Both the position numbers and the translations under genes were made by a program. DNA of 64,000 nucleotides from a virus: IMG/VR virus record IMGVR_UViG_3300037089_000506; one strand, written 5' to 3'. Below, piece by piece: positions 15,825 through 62,822 of the stretch; the stretch's first letter is position 1; the number at the start of each line of letters is the position of its first letter. The notes below the pieces were generated by a model that saw only the letters and a program-made list of their open reading frames with translations, ran no database searches and was not told the origin of the DNA.

Positions 15825-15833
15825 TTCTATTTT

Positions 15834-15909
15834 AGAGGGATAGCTTAAGGTTAGAGCAGGAAATCTATTAAGGTTTCTGTGTTGAAGGTATCGAATCCTT
15901 CTCCCTCTG
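15834..15909 (+). tRNA. atypical tRNA-like gene (Asn-like, loop CTATTAA)
   Basis: AGAGGGA/TCCCTCT acceptor, D arm, G73; irregular anticodon arm and 8-nt T loop. Confidence 0.45.
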
Positions 15910-15941
15910 TACTTTCTGAACCATCAACACACTAATTGTAT

Positions 15942-17270: not shown

Positions 17271-18480
17271 GTTTTATTATAAGGAGTGAATATGGGTATT
17301 ATACCAGAAGGTCAATCAGAACCAATGTCGGAAGACATGGCAAAATCTCTTTTAGGAATTACGATGCTAGAAATGCAGGATAAGAATTTCAAAACTGCTA
17401 CAGAGATTCTATCAGACATGACAGAACGAGCAGAGAATTCTGAGGATATGCAAGCTTTATTTCCTTTTCAGGTGATACAAAATAGAATTGAAATTTTTGG
17501 TTATGATATGAAATTTACTATTCCTGCTTTTCTCTCTTTTGGGGTATTTCCTGATAGAGTAGGAGCAGTGGTAGTTATGCTTATTGATATTCTAGAAACC
17601 CTTGGTGAAGGGAATATAACCTTAAATGATATAGCAGAGAAGTTATATCCCTATGGCTTCTATAATGAAGCAGGGTTAGAAAAGAGAATAGATGAAATTA
17701 AAATTGACAAAAAACTTCCTGCTGAAGAGATGAAATCCAAGTATAATAACTTGTATTGATGGGTAAATAAAAAGCAAAGAAAAAAGTTAGGATATCTATA
17801 GTAATTCTTGACATTCTTTAGATTATATTGTATCTTATTCAAATCTTAATTCTAAGGAGCCTAAAATGGCGCTTGTGTATAGGGTTGAAAATAAAGCACA
17901 TATTGGGCCATATCGGAATGAGTATTACCCTAGTATTATGAAATATGTTTCTAAGCGTCATACTGACAATAACCATCCTTGTCCAATAGAAGATGAAGAT
18001 ATAAATCGACGAATGGATGAAGAAGAGAGATGTGGATTCAAAGATTTGAATCAATTTCGTTCTTGGTTCAATTTGAGGGATAGAAAACTTCTTCATACTA
18101 TGGGGTTTATTCTTACTATTTATGAGGCTAAAGATATTGTTTATGGTAGATATCAAATTTTATTTAATAAAAATACTGCATATAAGATAATGGAATATTC
18201 ACTTTTAACCAGAAAAAGAACTTGACTATTTGACAGGAACATGTTATGTTCCTATTATCACTTGTTGAAGGAGACATGAATGGCGAATGAGGTTAAGAAT
18301 CGCTCGTGCCGAGTGAAGGGAGTAGGAAAGAATTCCGGCAGGTCCATCTCGGCGGAAAATCCTTCGGGGCTTCGTAGGAAGTCTGGTGGGCTAGAGCTTG
18401 CTCCTAAGTCTTTGCGGAGATTAGGCAGAAAGTTCATGACGGACTGTAATCAGGAGGAATTGGCAAAGATTGGATTGTAA

Positions 18481-18746: not shown

Positions 18747-18860
18747 GCCATCGTGGTGGAAATGGAAATACACTGGGGACTTAACGAGGGTTTTCCTCTA
18801 GAGAATCTTGGTTAATCCCCCGCCTTTAATGGATTGAGGGTTCGACTCCCTCTGATGGCA
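18747..18860 (+). tRNA. tRNA-Leu(TAA) with 29-nt insert (18785-18813) between positions 36/37
   Basis: removing the insert gives GGGGA-CTTAAAA-TCCCC; type II body, A73. Confidence 0.85.
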
Positions 18861-18914: not shown

Positions 18915-18987
18915 GGCTTCCTAGCCCAAAGGCAGAGGCAATAGTTTCAAAAACTATAAAGTTTGAGTTCGAGTCTCAGGGAAGCTA
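18915..18987 (+). tRNA. tRNA with CAA anticodon but no long variable arm
   Basis: ATAGT-TTCAAAA-ACTAT arm, 5-nt variable loop, canonical T arm. Confidence 0.7.
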
Positions 18988-21036: not shown

Positions 21037-21130
21037 AACGTAGGCATTGGTTCGAATCCAATCTTTCCCACTGTAAGCTTTATTAAAGAGCTTATTGTGG
21101 GAGAGGAGAGTCGGTGGCAGACTCGGCGTT
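21037..21130 (+). ncRNA. circularly permuted tRNA-like domain (YrlA-like) within a ~430 nt structured 3' region
   Basis: order AC3'-variable-T arm-acceptor3'-linker-acceptor5'-D arm-AC5', all stems paired. Confidence 0.7.
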
Positions 21131-21208
21131 TTTAGTAAAAATCATTGGGTGACTTCGGCCCGAAAGGATACTAGCAGCACTTACAATAGTCTTGAAAACT
21201 ATTAATCG

Positions 21209-21245
21209 GGCCGGGGGAAGGTAAGACCCCCGGTCCTTCTTTTTA
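21209..21245 (+). terminator. intrinsic terminator
   Basis: GGCCGGGGG/CCCCCGGTC hairpin plus T tract. Confidence 0.7.
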
Positions 21246-21258
21246 TTAGACTAATTAT

Positions 21259-22402: not shown

Positions 22403-22876
22403 AAATGGAAAAGCCTAAAGTAGTATTGACTGGTGCTGATGGCAATGTATTCAATCTACTGAGCATCTGTACTAAAGCCCTGAAAGAGGCAGGGCAGAGG
22501 GATAAGGCTAAGGAGCTGGGGGAGAAGTTGTGGGAGGCGAGTTCGTATGAACACGCTCTATGTTTAATGGCAGAATTTTGTGAGGTAGAATAAATGGATG
22601 CGAATGATCTGATGGAAAAGTTCACTGTTAAGTATCAAGTTATTGTTTTAATTATACTGGGCATTCTAGGTTCTATTGCTCTAGGCACGTTTGCTCTTTC
22701 AATGGAAGGGCTGTTTCAGATTGTATTTGCAATAGGAGCAGGATTAGTATGCTGGTATATATCAAGGTCAGAGTTTGAGATTTATTCTCGTCCTGTTCTG
22801 ACTTCATATTATTCATTGGGTGTACTACTAATGATGCTATCTTTTGCAGCAGTATTTCTTCAATGAAATTATTCAA

Positions 22877-22952
22877 GCGAGTGTATCTCCTCACTCTGAT
22901 AAGGTGTTGAAAGGGTAGTAGGTGCAGGGAGGTTCGAGTCCTCCAACTCGCA
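22877..22952 (+). tRNA. D-armless tRNA-Ile(GAT)-like gene
   Basis: GCGAGT/ACTCGC acceptor, CACT-CTGATAA-GGTG arm, canonical T arm; only 8 nt where the D arm belongs and a ~21-nt variable region. Confidence 0.5.
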
Positions 22953-22972
22953 CATTGGGAATTAGATAATAT

Positions 22973-23660: not shown

Positions 23661-23734
23661 GCCTTTGTAGCTCATATGGACAGAGCACTTCTCCACGAAA
23701 GAGGATGTAACAGGTTCGAACCCTGCCAAAGGTA
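23661..23734 (+). tRNA. tRNA-Arg(ACG)
   Basis: loop CCACGAA, A20 in D loop. Confidence 0.85.
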
Positions 23735-23736
23735 AT

Positions 23737-23838
23737 GGTTCTGTAGCTCAAATGGACAGAGCAACTGCCCTCTTTTTTACTTTAGCAGTAGAGTAATAAA
23801 GAAGCAGTAGGTAGCCCGTTCGAACCGGGCCAGGATCA
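23737..23838 (+). tRNA. tRNA-Arg(TCT) with 28-nt insert (23774-23801) at 36/37
   Basis: removal gives ACTGC-CCTCTAA-GCAGT; D loop nearly identical to the neighbouring Arg(ACG). Confidence 0.85.
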
Positions 23839-23840
23839 AA

Positions 23841-23940
23841 GGGACTAAGGCCGATTGGTTTAGGCACCGGCCTTTTTGAATACTTTTTAATAGAGTATTG
23901 AAAAAGCCGGTTGTGGTAGGTTCGATTCCTATTAGTCCCA
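23841..23940 (+). tRNA. tRNA-Lys(TTT) with 27-nt insert (23877-23903) at 36/37
   Basis: removal gives CCGGC-CTTTTAA-GCCGG; canonical D and T arms. Confidence 0.85.
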
Positions 23941-26082: not shown

Positions 26083-26125
26083 CGGGATGTAGCTCAGATA
26101 GTAGAGCGGGTGGTTTGGGGCCATC
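26083..26125 (+). pseudogene. truncated tRNA-Pro(TGG): T arm and 3' acceptor lost
   Basis: CGGGATG, D arm, GGTGG-TTTGGGG-CCATC, then no T arm. Confidence 0.55.
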
Positions 26126-26178
26126 AGTTGACTAGAGAATTCTGATTTGGGAATACATTCCCTTTCTCAAAACACTAA

Positions 26179-26598
26179 TTGTGTATGGAAAAGAAATGTT
26201 TTAGATGTAATGCTTATAAAGATATATCTTCCTTCTCAAAATCCAAAAAGACTCCTGATAAATTACATTCTTGGTGTAAGGAATGTGTAAAAGATTATGA
26301 TCATAATCGTCATATAAACAAAAGATACACTATTCTTTTACAAAAAAAAGAATATAGAGAAAGTAGAAGATTCTGGTTAAAGGAGTACAAAAAAGGAAAA
26401 GTATGTCTACGGTGTGGAGAAAGTCATCCGGCTTGTTTGGTATTTCATCATAAAGATGATACTATAAAAGAAAATAATATAGCAGATATGATAAGAGGAG
26501 GGTATTCACTTAAAAATATAAAAAAAGAAATTGATAAATGTGAGGTTTTATGTTCTAATTGTCATAATAAAGAGCATTTCTCTAAAGATTATTTATAG
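26179..26598 (+). mobile_element. HNH homing endonuclease
   Basis: CFRC..CKEC Zn finger; CLRC, FHH, CEVLCSNCH; stop codon overlaps tRNA-Pro. Confidence 0.8.
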
Positions 26599-26668
26599 CC
26601 GATGTGGTGTAATCCGGCAGCACATGGCATTTGGGATGCTAGGGCACAGTTCAAATCTGGCATCGGCT
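26598..26668 (+). tRNA. tRNA-Pro(TGG)
   Basis: TGGCA-TTTGGGA-TGCTA. Confidence 0.8.
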
Positions 26669-27322
26669 ATTTTCCTATTGACTTTTTTAAAAAACCATAG
26701 TATACTATTTATAGATAGGAACTGCTAGACGGTTACCTAATCTAAGGAGTTAATATGTACAGTATGGTTAAGGAGTATCTTGAAAAGAACAAGGTTATTA
26801 TCACCTACGTGAGAAACGACCTTGGTTTCAAGATAGGAATTGTCGTGGCTATAGGTCAAGACAAAATTGGATGGTCTCTTGTAAACCATCGACACGATTA
26901 TGAGAAGAGGTATCTTAAGCCCCACCAAATTCCCGCAATCCAGAAAATGTTGCAGCGCATGAAAGATTACAAGCCTGGAGTGCTGGACAAGAATGGAAAG
27001 GAAATTCCTTTCCCCAAGATAGACATTTTCAAGTCGAAAGCATATCGCCTGTACTTGGATATGTTGCGTGATACTAACTGGGATGCAACTAGTGAGATTC
27101 CGGTTCCTTCCTTCGATAGAGAAGAAGGACTTCGTAGGGCTATTGAAATGGCAGTCAATGGAACTTTCAAAGTAGCATCATGGCTTACTCATCCATGGGA
27201 TCGCCCTCTGAACAGCTATATGAGAGAAGCCATCACCCAAATGATTGACCGCTCCCATAGGGTTAAAATGTTTCAGGCGTAAGGAGGTAAATAGTGAGGG
27301 ATTGTATTAGTTAAGTTCTTTA

Positions 27323-27625: not shown

Positions 27626-29708
27626 TCTTTTCTACTTGACATTTTTAATGAAATATGGTAGATTATATATGAGATAGCTGGAGGATAAAACCATACTTTT
27701 TACAAGGAGAAGAAAATGAACATATCTGTTATTATTCCTGTTGATGATCTTCATCAGTATCAATACAATTTTTGGTTTTATGATAATAATAATACTCTTT
27801 ACCTGGATGGATATTATGAAGTATCCAAACAAACAAAAAGGCATCACTGGTGTGTTCAACGAGGATATGATAGACTCTCTGGACGTTATCCTTATCCTAA
27901 AATTCCTCTTAATGAGGTTCCTTTTAATGAAGATATAAAGGAACAAGCAAAGAAAGTTCTTATAGACAGCATACAAGTTAAATTTTGGGAAAAGGAATAA
28001 GGAGCTTAGAATGGAAACAAAGAATGTTTGTTATTTACCATGGACAACAATATTAACTATTATATTTGTTGTATTAAAACTTACAAAAGCTATTGCTTGG
28101 AGCTGGTGGTGGGTGTTAAGTCCATTGTTGATTGTAATAGGTATAATAGGTATAGTTATATGTATCTATGCATTGATAGGATTACTTCATATTTTTTCTA
28201 AATAGGAGAATGTGATGCCTAAAGGTATTATTACTGATGAGCACAAGAAAGCAATGAAAGAAGGTAGAGAAAGAGCTAGAGCAGAAAAGATAGCCAATGG
28301 TGAACCTTTGAGAGTATCAAGAAAACAAAAGACAGTACAATCCCAAGGTAAACCTAAGCTATATATTACTGGAAAAGAAAAAGATGCATTGGATTTCTTT
28401 CCTAGTATTAGAGAGTCTTTACGCCCTCTTTATAGAAATAAAGAATGTGATGATATATGTATAGAGCTTTCCCATTCTCCTACATGGCAAAATGTAAGAT
28501 TAGTATTAAATAGACTCCAAGAAATTTTTGATATAGTAGAGAATAATATAATCAAAGCTAAACCTGTAAAAATAAGAAAGAAAAGAGAATTTACTGAAGA
28601 ACAAAGAAAAGCAATAGGTGAAAGATTTGCTTTAGCTCGTGCTAAGAAAGAATTAAAATGAATAATATTTTAGTTTTTATTATGCATTGAGCCTGCTTTG
28701 GATAAGGAGTGACTATGACAATACAAGAAGAGATATTAGAGCTTGAAACAAAACTTGAAAAACTTAAAGAAAAACAAAAAGAGCAACAAAAAAGAAAAGA
28801 ATTTAAAATAATAGACTGTATACAACTTAATATTATAGGTAGGAAAGGCTCACAAGGTTTTGACTATTCTGAAACAGTTATTGGACAGCGAGAATCACTA
28901 TATTCTTTTCAAAAAAATATAGAGGGTTCTATTATGTTAGAACAATACGCATATGATATAGCATTTAGAGCTATAGATCCAATTAAAAGAATGCAAGTTA
29001 TTTCAACATTCCCTTTGATTTTCTAAATACTAATTATACATGACAACAGAAAACATTTTGAAACTTGATGAAGGAATGATGATTGAAGAAGAGGTATTAG
29101 AAGAAGCATTAAGGGTTGCCCGATTACAACTTGGCTTCAAGCAGGTAATCCCTGGAGTTAATATAATGGACGCACACCAATCAGTGCCTGTCTTTGGAAC
29201 CCATTGGGGCAGGGGACTACTTATATCCTATCAAGGCAGATTCGACGCCGTAGTAGGCTCCTGTGGTACCTCTCATGCTGAATTGAAGAAGCAGATGCAG
29301 CCAGGAGAAAGCACTGAAGGCACTTTTTATTATGGATATGATGGTAGAACTAAAACCCTTTATTTGGATTATGCTACCGATAGAACCTTCGAATTTAATA
29401 ATAAAACAATGGGAGCTATTATTAATGCTTTACGCTTGACACCAGGATTCTTTCATAATATGATAGTAGGATAAGGAGGAAGTATGCTTAATTTTGATTT
29501 TATGGAGTCGGAACATGAGGAGAACGAGGAGGACAATGTACAATTTGGTCCTAAATGGAATCCCTTCTATAAACCACATCCCTGTGAAAGATGTGGAGCT
29601 ACGAATACTGAGTATGTAGAAGACCCCTATAATTCTGAAATACTTGATGATCATGAAATGCATTGGTTCTGTCCTGATTGCTATAGAGAGTTAATACAAG
29701 ACATATAA

Positions 29709-29789: not shown

Positions 29790-29890
29790 GAGCCGATAGC
29801 TCCAACAGTAGAGCGGGTGGCTGTAAAATACTTTCTTACGAGAGTACTTTAGTAACCACCTTGTTGTAGGTTCGATTCCTGCTCGGCTCG
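29790..29890 (+). tRNA. tRNA-Asn(GTT) with 28-nt insert (29825-29852) at 35/36
   Basis: removal gives GGTGG-CTGTTAA-CCACC; G73, short variable loop. Confidence 0.8.
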
Positions 29891-35303: not shown

Positions 35304-35756
35304 ATGGAGAAAACCTTTAAAGGAAGTACCATGATTTACGGTTTTTTTGGTGAGTATAGCTTTTTAAGTAATTTCCATCTTTGTGAAATTCCTTTTGAAG
35401 GGCTCATTTACCCCTCTACCGAATATGCATTTCAGGCTGCTAAAACTTTAGACATTCAGGAACGAAAGTTTATTAGAACGGCTACTACTTGTGGTAAGGC
35501 TAAACGAGCAGGAATGACAGTAACATTACGTTCTGATTGGGAGGGAATAAAAATAGGTATTATGTATGATGTGAATATGACTAAATATGAAACATATCCT
35601 GAGCTTAAGGAGAAACTTCTAGCTACAGGTGAAGAAGAACTTGTAGAAGGCAATACGTGGGGAGATACCTTCTGGGGACAGGTAGATGGAATTGGCAAGA
35701 ATTATTTAGGTTTAGTTTTAATGCAGATTAGAAAGGAACTAAAAGAGGGCCTATAG
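35304..35756 (+). CDS. NADAR family protein
   Basis: FLSNF, STEYAFQAAK, DWE..K..IM, LVEGN.WGD.FWG, N.LG..LM.IR. Confidence 0.9.
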   Translation: MEKTFKGSTMIYGFFGEYSFLSNFHLCEIPFEGLIYPSTEYAFQAAKTLDIQERKFIRTATTCGKAKRAGMTVTLRSDWEGIKIGIMYDVNMTKYETYPELKEKLLATGEEELVEGNTWGDTFWGQVDGIGKNYLGLVLMQIRKELKEGL

Positions 35757-35817
35757 CTCAGTGGTAAAGCACCGTCCTCTAAACACGGGAACTAGGGTTC
35801 AATTCCCTATAGGCTCA
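35747..35817 (+). tRNA. amber suppressor-type tRNA (CTA)
   Basis: complete cloverleaf, loop CT-CTA-AA, C31:C39 mismatch. Confidence 0.75.
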
Positions 35818-48665: not shown

Positions 48666-49607
48666 ATGGCGTATTTCATTTATTGTATTGAGAACATAAT
48701 AAACCACAAAAAATATATAGGGCAAACATCTAAAACTATTGAAGAAAGATTTTGTGCCCATAAAAAATGCATGATTAGAAGAAAGAATCAAGTTTTGTAT
48801 GATGCTATGAATAAATATGGTATAGATAATTTTATTATTTACCAAGTGGAAGAGTGTAATAAAGAGAATTGTAGTGAAAAGGAACAGTATTGGATAAAAC
48901 AATATAACACCACTAATAGGGATTTTGGCTATAATATGACTGGTGGTGGAGAGAAATGTAATAAGCTAGAAGGATGGTCAGAAGAAAATAAAAAAGAACT
49001 GTATAAGAAACAAGCTATGAAAAGAAAGAAATCTGCTCAAAAGTTAGGGGTAGAACATTTTAATCAATTACCTGAGAATAGGGTAAAATTAGGTAAACAT
49101 CTGAAAGGAAAGACCTTTGAGGAAGTTTATGGAAAGGATCGTTCTGATGCTATCAAGCTTAAAATAAGTAGAACCTTAAAAAATATTGGGCATAAGCCCC
49201 CTATACACCATGGAGGGAATCATGGGTATCATCTTACTAATGAGGATAAGCAAAAAATGAGCGTTGCTCGTAGAGGAAAGACATATGAAGAGATATATGG
49301 AATCACAACTGCTAAGGTGATGAAGGATAAAAAAGTAGAAGTTAGCCTTAAAAGACAGTTCAATATCAAAAAAGAATCACTAAAGATAAGAATAAAGGTT
49401 CTAGATTATCTTAGTAATAATAAGGGAGTCTCTTACAAAGATATCCCTGTAGGGAAGGCTTCTATTCATAATATTAGAACACTTCTACGAGAAATTGGTA
49501 TTGACAATTATCAATTTTTTAAGTATAATTTCTTAGGAAATGATAAAGATTGGTGGGAATTCTTCCAATCTAAAATTTTATTTTTAAGGAGTAAATATGC
49601 AGAATAA
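48666..49607 (+). mobile_element. GIY-YIG homing endonuclease
   Basis: FIYCIENIINHKKYIGQT, GYNMTGGG; overlaps the RNA ligase start. Confidence 0.85.
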
Positions 49608-50871
49608 CACAGCAGTAGTGATGAAAATTAGTAGGATAGAACCTATAGTAGGAGCAGATAACATTGTCAAAGCTATACTTAGCCTAGAGGGAATAGAGCA
49701 GGGGCAGGTAGTAGTAGGTAAAAATGATTTTTATGAAGAAAATAATGTAGTATTTTTTGACTCCAATATGATATTAAACTTAGATTTTATTAAGGTAGTA
49801 GATAAGCAATCTCCTGATTATGGTAAGGAGGAGTTTAAGTCAATCGGGAGCTATTTATCCAAAGGTAATCGGGTAAAGGTAGTGAGACTCAAAAATACTA
49901 TTTCACTGGGGCTTGCAATAGGGGTAGGCAAGTTTAAGCCCTACAATGTTGATCTTGAGGAAGGGAATAGTTTTACTTCCCTTAATGGTGTTGATGTCTG
50001 CCACAAATATGTGCCTCCACAGAAGCAGATTCAGGTTCAAGGTAAGAAGGGAAGGAAAGTAAAGAAAACTTCTCGTCTAATCCCTGATCAGTTTCATTTC
50101 CATATTGATACTTCACAACTATTGCGAAATGTACATAAGTTTAATCCTAACCAGATAATCAGTATCAGTCGGAAAATACACGGAACTTCAGCTATCTGTG
50201 CTAATGCTCTAGTAAAGAGGAAATTAAACCTGCTGGAGAAAATAGCAAAGAGTATAGGAATAAAGATACAGGATACTGAGTACGATTATCTCTATGCATC
50301 CAGGTCAGTAGTCAAGAACGATGCTACTACTTCTGGCTTCTACAAGGAAGATATCTGGACTGAGGCTGGAAAAAAATATTTCCTAACTAAACTTCATGCT
50401 GGTGAAACTGTCTACTATGAGATAGTGGGATTCCTCCCTTCTGGCAATGCTATCCAGAAGGGATATCGTTATGGTTGTATACCTAATACGTATAAAGTTG
50501 CTGTCTATAGGATTACTGCTACTGGTACTGATGGTACTGTGTATGAGTATTCATGGCAAGCAATGAAACAGCGCTGCGAAGAACTTCAGGTGCCTATGGT
50601 AGAGGAATTCTACTATGGCAAGGCTTCCGATTTCCCTCTATACTCCAATCCTACCAATCCTGAGTATTGGGTTAGCTATTTTATTAATGAATTGAAGGCT
50701 AATTATTTGGAAAAAAAGGCCGAAGATTGCGATGGTAACCCTGATGAGGGTATCGTTATCAGGATCGAGGGTATGAACATCGAGGCTTACAAGCTGAAGT
50801 CTGAAGCATTCCTCTTGAAGGAGTCAAAGGCACATGAAGAAGAGGTTATCGATATAGAAGAACAGGCATAA
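49597..50871 (+). CDS. ATP-dependent RNA ligase (DRB0094/Rnl2-like)
   Basis: N-terminal OB-like domain, KIHGTS (motif I), YEIVG, EGIVIR, YKLKS. Confidence 0.85.
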   Translation: MQNNTAVVMKISRIEPIVGADNIVKAILSLEGIEQGQVVVGKNDFYEENNVVFFDSNMILNLDFIKVVDKQSPDYGKEEFKSIGSYLSKGNRVKVVRLKNTISLGLAIGVGKFKPYNVDLEEGNSFTSLNGVDVCHKYVPPQKQIQVQGKKGRKVKKTSRLIPDQFHFHIDTSQLLRNVHKFNPNQIISISRKIHGTSAICANALVKRKLNLLEKIAKSIGIKIQDTEYDYLYASRSVVKNDATTSGFYKEDIWTEAGKKYFLTKLHAGETVYYEIVGFLPSGNAIQKGYRYGCIPNTYKVAVYRITATGTDGTVYEYSWQAMKQRCEELQVPMVEEFYYGKASDFPLYSNPTNPEYWVSYFINELKANYLEKKAEDCDGNPDEGIVIRIEGMNIEAYKLKSEAFLLKESKAHEEEVIDIEEQA

Positions 50872-60945: not shown

Positions 60946-61689
60946 ATGAACAATAAGTCATATAAGTTAGGGAAAACCTGTTCTATTTGTGGAAAGCAAA
61001 TAATAGATAGTAATAAAGGTGGAAAGTGTTCTCTCCATAGAGATCGAACAGGAAAAAATAATCCTTTCTATGGTAAGCATCATGATAAGAAAACTATTGA
61101 AGCTACAAAAATAAAATTAAAAGAAATATCTAAAGATTTATGGAAAGATAAGGGGTATAGGGAAAAAGTAATAAAAGCTATCTCTAAACCTCGAAGAGAG
61201 GGTTTTAAAAAAGAGCAAAGTGAAAGAATAACTCAATGGTATAGAGATAACCCAGAGCAGTTAGATATAAGAAGAGAGGCTATGAAAGAATCTTGGAAGT
61301 CTGGGAGTATTTCCTATAATGAGCATTCTTCTTACAATAGCAGTAAAATAGAAAAATCTCTATTATATGATATACAACAATTTTGTTCAGAAGCACAAGA
61401 ACACTATACTATTAAAACTACTGAAAAATGGTATTTACCAGATATCTACATTGAAAGTAAAAAAATAATAATAGAATTATATGGTGAATATTGGCACGCT
61501 CACTCTGATCGTTACCAAGAAGAAGATGTTGTTCACCATAATGTAAAGGCTAAAGATATTTGGAGCAAAGATAAAATAAGAGAAAAGGTCTTGACAGAAC
61601 TAGGGTATACTGTTATTATTATATGGAGTGAGAAATATAAAAAGGATAAAGAAAATACTTTGTCCTATATTAGGAGTTTATTATGTTAG
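60946..61689 (+). mobile_element. NUMOD3 + Vsr/DUF559-like homing endonuclease
   Basis: NPFYGKHH, YLPDIYI...IELYGEYWH; overlaps the rtcB start. Confidence 0.75.
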
Positions 61690-62822
61690 AAATTCGTGGA
61701 AAATACAATTCTGCTATCATTTATAATGATAATGTGGAACAGTCAGCTTTATCTCAAATTTATGCTCTTCTAAATAATGAGGTTTCTATTGGAAGTAAAA
61801 TTCGTATTATGCCAGATGTTCATGCAGGAGCAGGGTGTGTCATAGGGTATACTGCAACTCTTACAAATAAAATAATAGTAAATTTAATAGGTGTTGATAT
61901 TGGGTGTGGAATCACTTCTATATGTATAGGAAAAAAGGATATAGATTTCCAGAAACTTGATGACATCATTCATACCTATGTACCTTCAGGTCACAATGTA
62001 CATACTTCTCAATCTGGTGGTGAATGGATTCAAAAAGATTTTAAGAAATCTTCCATCTATGATGATGTCAGAAAAATATGTGAGAAGCAAGATCAGGATT
62101 TTAATCGAGTTATGGCTTCACTAGGATCGAGTGGGGGAGGCAACCATTTTTGTGAGGTAGATAAGGATCAAGATGGCCTACTCTGGCTTACTGTTCATTC
62201 AGGCTCTCGTAACTTTGGTTTGAAGATTGCCAATTACTGGCAATCTATAGCGAAGGCTAAAACTCATGGTACTGAAGGTACCATGAATGGGTTGGAGTAT
62301 TTAAAGGATGAGGACTATCAAGGATACTTGACAGATATGATGATAGCTCAAATTTATGCTCATAAGAATCGAGAGTATATATTACAGCAGATTCAAGAGA
62401 AGATGGATTTAGTCTATGGTGATGGTCGTTCTGTTGAGTCTGTCCATAACTATATTGATCTTGACCATGAAATTATCCGTAAGGGAGCAATATCAGCTAT
62501 GCTAAATGAGCCTGTGATTATTCCTTGGAATATGCGAGATGGATTGATTATAGGCACGGGAAAGGGCAATCCAGACTGGAATTTCAGTGCTCCTCATGGT
62601 GCTGGTCGTATCATGGGTAGGCAGGTAGCAAAGAAATCATTACAATTATCTGACTTTGAGGATTCAATGAAGGGAATATGGACTTCATGCGTTTCTAAGG
62701 ATACTATTGATGAATCCCCAATGGCTTATAAGCCTTATGAGGAAATACAGGATTTGATAGGGGATACTGTAGATATAAAGTATACTTTAAAGCCTGTATA
62801 TAGCTTCAAGGCGAATGAATAA
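61683..62822 (+). CDS. rtcB: RtcB RNA ligase
   Basis: MPDVHAG, GVDIGCG, GGGNHF, HSGSR, HNY, PHGAGR, DESPMAYK. Confidence 0.95.
   Translation: MLEIRGKYNSAIIYNDNVEQSALSQIYALLNNEVSIGSKIRIMPDVHAGAGCVIGYTATLTNKIIVNLIGVDIGCGITSICIGKKDIDFQKLDDIIHTYVPSGHNVHTSQSGGEWIQKDFKKSSIYDDVRKICEKQDQDFNRVMASLGSSGGGNHFCEVDKDQDGLLWLTVHSGSRNFGLKIANYWQSIAKAKTHGTEGTMNGLEYLKDEDYQGYLTDMMIAQIYAHKNREYILQQIQEKMDLVYGDGRSVESVHNYIDLDHEIIRKGAISAMLNEPVIIPWNMRDGLIIGTGKGNPDWNFSAPHGAGRIMGRQVAKKSLQLSDFEDSMKGIWTSCVSKDTIDESPMAYKPYEEIQDLIGDTVDIKYTLKPVYSFKANE

Follow-up and report, generated by a model that had tools for sequence, protein, structure and literature searches.

Four tRNA genes of an uncultured phage carry short hairpin inserts in their anticodon loops which, as far as the sequence allows a judgement, are best explained as true introns of a protein-spliced class. 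The host RNase III probably excises the hairpin and a phage ligase acting on 5'-phosphate and 3'-hydroxyl (5'-P/3'-OH) ends would then join the exons. Taken by itself, RNase III-type cutting of the inserts can be predicted with high confidence, and rejoining of the exons, once they are cut, would be very likely. The analysed stretch of 64,000 nucleotides (the window) comes from a 109.5-kb phage record with 34.5% G+C that is 62% complete, in which about 24 tRNA-like genes were counted; the nearest matches among cultured phages are distant. Using a cloverleaf search that tolerates long anticodon loops we found exactly four genes of this kind in the window, two of them preceded by promoter-like sequences:

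18230..18258, + strand: sigma-70-like promoter, by consensus match only (11/12), upstream of tRNA-Leu
18747..18860, + strand: pre-tRNA-Leu(UAA), long variable arm, no encoded CCA; Rfam tRNA 32.9 bits
18785..18813, + strand: Leu hairpin insert, 29 nt, position 36/37; 11 bp, G-G mismatch at bp 2
23737..23838, + strand: pre-tRNA-Arg(UCU), C33 variant, from the cloverleaf scanner; spliced form Arg(tct)
23774..23801, + strand: Arg hairpin insert, 28 nt, position 36/37; 11 bp, U-U mismatch at bp 3
23841..23940, + strand: pre-tRNA-Lys(UUU); Rfam tRNA 47.9 bits; spliced form Lys(ttt)
23877..23903, + strand: Lys hairpin insert, 27 nt, position 36/37; 10 bp, G-G mismatch at bp 2
29436..29464, + strand: sigma-70-like promoter, by consensus match only (11/12), upstream of tRNA-Val and tRNA-Asn
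29790..29890, + strand: pre-tRNA-Asn(GUU), G73; Rfam tRNA 46.4 bits; spliced form Asn(gtt)
29825..29852, + strand: Asn hairpin insert, 28 nt, position 35/36 within the anticodon; 11 bp, mismatched at bp 4 (A-C)

An earlier sequence-only reading had described four tRNAs with anticodon-loop inserts of 27–29 nt, and all four are indeed present at the isoacceptors it named; the span 23737-23940 under which it filed them holds Arg and Lys, while Leu and Asn lie outside. The locus recurs nearly identically in several independent assemblies with the same inserts each time, which rules out assembly error as their source. The 6+6 motif common to the inserts occurs three times against 0.10 expected, a count reached in none of 100 shuffles, and its only exact match elsewhere in viral contigs (L001) was judged to be due to chance. 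As had been proposed, the inserts fold as hairpins, with z values of −3.4 to −7.3 for anticodon arm plus insert. In the predicted register, in which the two cuts are staggered to leave a 2-nt 3' overhang, nine of the first ten positions pair in all four, bearing out the claimed overhang; for Leu this register ties with register 3, and the Asn helix is broken on the exon side. Base pairs 8–10 read U-A, U.G, U-A throughout, as the earlier reading stated, including the Leu insert (U.G at bp 9, U-A at bp 10). Its remark that intron-free copies are missing also holds for the 109.5-kb record (62% complete), where none was found for Leu(UAA), Arg(UCU), Lys(UUU) or Asn(GUU). The codons concerned are abundant, as it had said: AAA, AAT and TTA rank 1, 2 and 7, and AGA is the commonest Arg codon.

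When the inserts are removed in silico, ARAGORN accepts the products as valid Leu(UAA), Arg(UCU), Lys(UUU) and Asn(GUU). Within the window the Arg boundary alone is ambiguous, as 35/36 would give Arg UCG; we set it at 36/37 because the syntenic insert-free gene of a relative, L052, has the predicted loop. In this related phage, in which a neighbouring protein is 91% identical, the Arg, Lys and Asn genes are insert-free, stand in the same order and have loops exactly as predicted for the window, the Arg gene sharing even the unusual C33. Its Leu(UAA) gene carries a 28-nt insert of the same build and different sequence; the homologous position holds a Leu insert with different letters in L058 as well. 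Among cultured phages, the Aeromonas phages Aeh1, Ah1 and PX29 and phage AsFcp have such an insert in tRNA-Arg(UCU), and phiAS5 has the insert-free allele at the place of the insert-bearing gene of Aeh1 and PX29. Gene 57B ('RNA ligase'), which lies beside the Aeh1 gene, also adjoins the insert-free phiAS5 allele and was given no weight. The insert-bearing genes of the cultured Aeromonas phages are mis-annotated or unannotated: in GenBank that of Aeh1 (NC_005260, 114904-115008) is filed as tRNA-Glu and that of PX29 (NC_023688, 101160-101263) as tRNA-Lys, and Arg(UCU) is absent from the tRNA list of the Aeh1 genome paper (PMC1524935). Both annotations can now be corrected to tRNA-Arg(UCU).

Pattern scans of viral and metagenome contigs yielded 40 distinct inserts of 24–45 nt, most of them 26–30 nt (33 of the 40 fall within 24–31 nt), in genes for Arg(UCU), Leu(UAA), Lys(UUU), Asn(GUU), Gly(UCC), Trp(CCA), Thr(GGU) and Thr(UGU); an Ile(UAU) insert added later brings the total to nine isoacceptors. 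These counts are uncorrected for relatedness and inflated by related sequences, and the searches were weighted towards Arg, Leu, Lys and Asn. The scan for Asn and Tyr genes returned mostly ordinary tRNAs. For statistics we used 31 unselected inserts, namely 18 found without any constraint inside the insert and 13 more found with the last two bases fixed. At stagger 2 their first ten positions are 77% paired, compared with 41–46% at other staggers and 51% (maximum 59%) for shuffled partners. In 16 of the 18 end-unconstrained inserts the final two bases could form Watson-Crick pairs with the two exon bases that precede the insert, and this end complementarity varies in step with the isoacceptor and its anticodon. 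U.G is found at bp 9 in 13 of the 31 inserts but at other positions in just 13 of 279 cases, and U-A at bp 10 in 14 of the 31; all 19 regular stems have a pyrimidine-purine pair at bp 9, and 15 of them have A-U or U-A at bp 3. For five inserts found through the motif, placing the borders by the motif and nothing else yields an anticodon that fits the tRNA body at 35/36 or 36/37. Such borders check out in Trp, Thr, Leu and Lys, for example in a Trp(CCA) gene with A1-U72 and G73. The covariation that the sequence-only reading wished to see is present: in unrelated phages and different isoacceptors the register and the bp 9–10 element persist, with base changes that compensate each other. Unrelated phages carry similar inserts in different isoacceptors, a hint at mobility.

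About one quarter of the collected inserts is irregular or off-register. One Lys insert suits a 3-nt register instead, and in a subgroup only 3–4 bp are paired before an internal loop. In two Asn genes with the insert at 34/35 (L201 2746-2849 and L636 10234-10339) the RNase III register suits the 3' border only and would leave 3–4 extra bases on the 5' exon. Some Asn or Asp-like tRNA genes (L256 272-386, L629 1019-1143 and L044 1501-1612) were seen to hold longer inserts with several hairpins, one of these inserts having a T-loop; the phage of L629 carries a hairpin-type Lys insert as well. The matches listed from a scan of bacterial and archaeal genomes were mostly archaeal bulge-helix-bulge (BHB) introns, and no cellular bacterial member of the class was confirmed among them. 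They included two Deinococcales inserts, which are branched, 36 nt long and located in tRNA-Arg(UCU) genes within tRNA arrays (L361 5977-6086 and L425 4290-4398). Both are off-register and suit register 5, no RNase III match was found in the two bins, and they probably represent another class.

The regular inserts resemble known RNase III substrates closely. The minimal substrate of the E. coli enzyme has an 11-bp helix from the cut to a tetraloop and releases a 28-nt product; its distal box contains U-A and a stringently required U.G, and position 2 of its proximal box is A-U or U-A (PMC1540722). Removing the two top pairs takes away the last distal-box pair (PMC8708148) and both boxes together cover 22 bp (PMC3867540), from which we derive ourselves that the distal box corresponds to bp 9–10. 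This is where the inserts have U.G and U-A; RNase III sites of B. subtilis show the same U.G bias. The distance from cut to loop is 11 positions in Leu, Arg and Asn and 10 in Lys, a length at which the E. coli substrate is 50-fold weaker (PMC1540722). The proximal box (W, A-U, W, G-C at bp 1–4, W being A-U or U-A) is matched in part: in the window bp 3 is A-U in three of four inserts with mismatches at bp 2–4, and G-C at bp 4 is found in the inserts of Aeh1, Ah1 and PX29, not in those of the window. The exon-side helix of the window inserts is short, and mismatched in Asn, which could give single-strand nicking. Like the inserts, the T7 substrates R1.1 and uR1.1 (PMC1540722, PMC3867540, PMC8708148) have a 10–11-bp helix with a short loop, the register with a 2-nt 3' overhang and the distal-box U.G and U-A; in both, position 2 of the proximal box is biased to A-U and the product measures about 28 nt. 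Here, in contrast, the site lies inside a tRNA anticodon loop, its flanks need rejoining and the proximal box is matched only partly. The inserts can thus be said to match an RNase III substrate in length, register and letters, at the level of sequence.

None of the known intron classes accounts for them. Self-splicing group I or II introns need a catalytic core of hundreds of bases, compared with 27–29 nt here, and no Rfam intron family matched the inserts at E values up to 1. Archaeal introns have a bulge-helix-bulge, usually at 37/38, while the inserts form a continuous helix at 35/36 or 36/37; the archaeal 37/38 introns recovered by the same search also look different. The earlier exclusion of group I and of BHB/EndA splicing stands, as both routes fail on their defining features. 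The introns cut by EndA or TSEN and joined by RtcB or Trl1 (PMC3400036) are likewise short, protein-spliced anticodon-loop introns that are cut and then ligated. The phage inserts differ in position, in the missing BHB, in carriers without EndA and in their predicted ends, which would be 5'-P/3'-OH instead of cyclic phosphate and 5'-OH. The intervening sequences (IVS) of 23S rRNA (PMC8708148) also are stems inserted into a stable RNA and are excised by host RNase III. They are 100–200 nt long, defined by their location in rRNA and leave the RNA fragmented, whereas the phage inserts of 24–45 nt sit in tRNA anticodons, in which a lasting break would hardly be tolerated. The 'enigmatic' introns of Lak megaphages (Devoto 2019, PMC6784885) are also anticodon-loop inserts outside group I, with insert-free alleles in relatives. 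This type is tRNA-shaped with a T arm (about 50–115 nt; 79–114 nt with a T-loop in Table S6), while the inserts described here are short single hairpins without a T-loop. The interpretation of the earlier reading, an RNase III-type cut, is therefore upheld at sequence level by the conserved register, the distal box at its published position and the failure of the group I and BHB/EndA routes.

Two RNA ligases in the window are candidates for the joining step:

49597..50871, + strand: ATP-dependent RNA ligase of a distant DRB0094/PHA02142 type, OB-fold and ligase domain; candidate exon joiner
61683..62822, + strand: RtcB-family ligase (PF01139, E 2e-57); rival joining enzyme

The ORF at 49597-50871 matches PF21189 (E 9e-7), PF09414 (E 1.5e-4) and TIGR02306 (E 6e-9, below cut-off) and is about 30% identical over its full length to annotated mycobacteriophage RNA ligases; no relative in the PDB was found by sequence. 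RNase III leaves 5'-P/3'-OH ends (PMC3867540), which suit a DRB0094-like ligase and not RtcB. Ligases of the Rnl2 type favour nicks in duplex RNA and closure of anticodon loops is a speciality of Rnl1 (PMC3884662), a real point against the proposed joining step. That the ORF at 49597-50871 is the joining ligase has roughly equal chances of being right or wrong. An RNase III gene, for which the sequence-only reading had looked to the rest of the genome, did not turn up in the phage's own record (62% complete), nor did a dsRBD protein or Rnl1. As RNase III genes were found in none of 26 carrier records, the nuclease should be supplied by the host and is very probably the host RNase III, judging by gene content. 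EndA (PF01974) was absent from 15 carrier records other than the window's own, with positive controls. The seven near-complete carrier phages have neither RNase III nor EndA nor RtcB. Six of the seven encode a PF09414 ATP-dependent RNA ligase, the exception being the carrier of an off-register insert; Rnl1 is present in four, and two complete carriers have the PF09414 type only. Of 18 control phages, eight have PF09414 and five have RtcB. The resulting co-occurrence (6/7 versus 8/18) has P = 0.09, or 0.02 minus the off-register case, with three of the carriers being close relatives, and the link between this ligase and the inserts is no more than suggestive.

A hairpin of the same build was found in a second context:

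21072..21098, + strand: fifth hairpin, 27 nt, closing the acceptor stem of a circularly permuted tRNA-like RNA

The cuts defined by the motif fall after A73-C74 and before G1. The RNA itself, at about 21037-21147 (window 21037-21250), consists of a T arm, a 7-bp acceptor and a D arm and is closed by the hairpin; a long helix replaces the anticodon arm and the acceptor is not alanine-like. L052 and L058 show compensatory changes in it. In the relatives the hairpin has other letters, with 28 nt, 11 bp, a tetraloop, A-U, A-U, G-C at bp 2–4 and U.G, U-A at bp 9–10. The RNA has weak scores against permuted tmRNA models and none against YrlA; a Ro60 gene was not found in the 109.5-kb record (62% complete). 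Furthermore, in Aeromonas phages the leader and trailer of Arg and Asn genes that lack CCA form helices in which all ten of 10 positions pair and bp 9–10 are U.G, U-A, in a register that frees nucleotide 1 and C74. Among ordinary tRNA genes in the collected loci only 7 of 1188 pair equally well, three of these with the same box. CCA-less tRNA genes with a 10-bp leader-trailer helix in register with nucleotide 1 and C74 were noted at L622 603-676 and L603 5001-5106 and 8701-8782, and further ones lie in L114, L084, L174, L281 and L542. By their sequence these helices of CCA-less phage tRNA genes point to a probable end maturation by RNase III, and the same rule would mark exact tRNA boundaries in a second context. 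Such ends could also come from RNase P and exonucleases (PMC4201824), and the helices back the RNase III reading as support, not as proof.

The precursor would thus form one helix of about 20 bp by pairing of the insert with the anticodon loop, burying the anticodon and presenting a minimal RNase III substrate. Where exon and intron meet, host RNase III would cleave the two strands so that a 2-nt 3' overhang remains and the 27–29-nt hairpin is freed, the 5' exon keeping a 3'-OH and the 3' exon a 5'-phosphate, and the phage ATP-dependent RNA ligase (most likely 49597-50871) would close the anticodon loop without end healing. An RNase III cut could also be the end of the process if the halves stay apart, as a nicked tRNA or as halves serving as decoy, regulator or discard. 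We regard this as unlikely, even if the known bacterial precedent, excision of the 23S rRNA IVS by RNase III, leaves its RNA unjoined (PMC8708148). The fifth hairpin and the leader-trailer helices require cutting only, and the ligase link is statistically weak; a tRNA broken at 35/36 or 36/37 would not decode, though. Anticodon nucleases kill by breaking this very loop. Moreover, an exact 7-nt loop is restored in nine isoacceptors with canonical tRNA bodies, and the carriers examined showed no insert-free copy. If the cut were made by another nuclease of phage or host that leaves cyclic-phosphate ends, RtcB or a Pnk-Rnl1 pair could do the splicing. RtcB is encoded in the window and by many hosts, most genes of the window phage have no known function and Rnl1 occurs in four of seven complete carriers, but RtcB occurs in none of the seven near-complete ones. 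The 2-nt 3' overhang and the distal-box U.G at its published position are specific to RNase III, and CCA addition at the cut of the fifth hairpin would require a 3'-OH, so that we consider such a route distinctly unlikely.

Clearly improbable is also that the RNAs stay uncut, as mimics of tRNA that keep the anticodon masked and act on nucleases, synthetases or T-box-like sensors as decoys, or as tolerated pseudogenes: tRNA-rich phages do hold many odd tRNA-like genes, several of them in the window, but this would leave unexplained the fixed 2-nt register, the fixed U.G ten bases from the border and an end complementarity that tracks the anticodon. A role at the DNA level, with the inserts as footprints of small mobile hairpins or as shields against HNH and GIY-YIG homing endonucleases and any RNA effects incidental, has very little probability. 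Free-standing HNH and GIY-YIG genes flank tRNA genes in the window, SegB of T4 targets tRNA genes (PMC2330249) and similar inserts occur in different isoacceptors; against this, target duplications are absent and the conserved U.G wobble pairs point to the RNA level. Such a role may account for the spread of the introns, not for tRNA production.

Splicing by host RNase III and a phage ligase would, if true, introduce a new chemistry of tRNA splicing, one that passes through 5'-P/3'-OH ends and dispenses with healing. Bacterial tRNA introns are reviewed as self-splicing group I introns and enzymatic tRNA splicing as a matter of archaea and eukaryotes (PMC3400036), and no RNase III-based tRNA splicing was found described in the literature searched, which omits most subscription papers. 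The closest likeness on the joining side is the repair of tRNA-Lys in T4 (PrrC, Pnkp, Rnl1; PMC3014915), where a phage ATP-dependent ligase also closes an anticodon-loop break from 5'-P/3'-OH ends. There the break is damage inflicted by the host that needs healing, while here it would be programmed maturation without healing. The biological role of T4 Rnl2-type ligases is given as unknown (PMC3884662), and the inserts offer a direct test case for it. For the wider proposal, an undescribed phage pathway of host RNase III and an Rnl2/DRB0094-type ligase with mobile introns in at least nine isoacceptors and a tRNA supply that depends on a phage enzyme, the chances are about even. The introns may persist as near-neutral passengers, as shields against tRNA-targeting homing endonucleases, or by masking the anticodon from host nucleases until the phage enzyme is present.

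Several other tRNA genes of the window are unusual as well. An atypical tRNA-like gene at 15833-15910 has enlarged anticodon and T loops and is called Asn(AUU) by ARAGORN, and tRNA-Leu(CAA) at 18915-18987 has a short variable loop, which is unusual for leucine. At 22875-22953 a tRNA-Ile(GAU)-like gene has no normal D arm and extra sequence after the anticodon arm; relatives of the window phage have an ordinary Ile(GAU) gene near this place. The tRNA-Arg(ACG) at 23661-23734, miscalled Ser by ARAGORN, has C33, which is common to both Arg genes of the phage. At 26083-26670 the 5' half of a tRNA-Pro(UGG) is followed by an ORF of 139 aa, in which an HNH-like motif was recognised by eye, and then by a full tRNA-Pro(UGG), which looks like an endonuclease insertion with partial duplication. 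Finally, the tRNA at 35747-35817 has a CUA anticodon and resembles an amber suppressor, yet long ORFs read normally in code 11.
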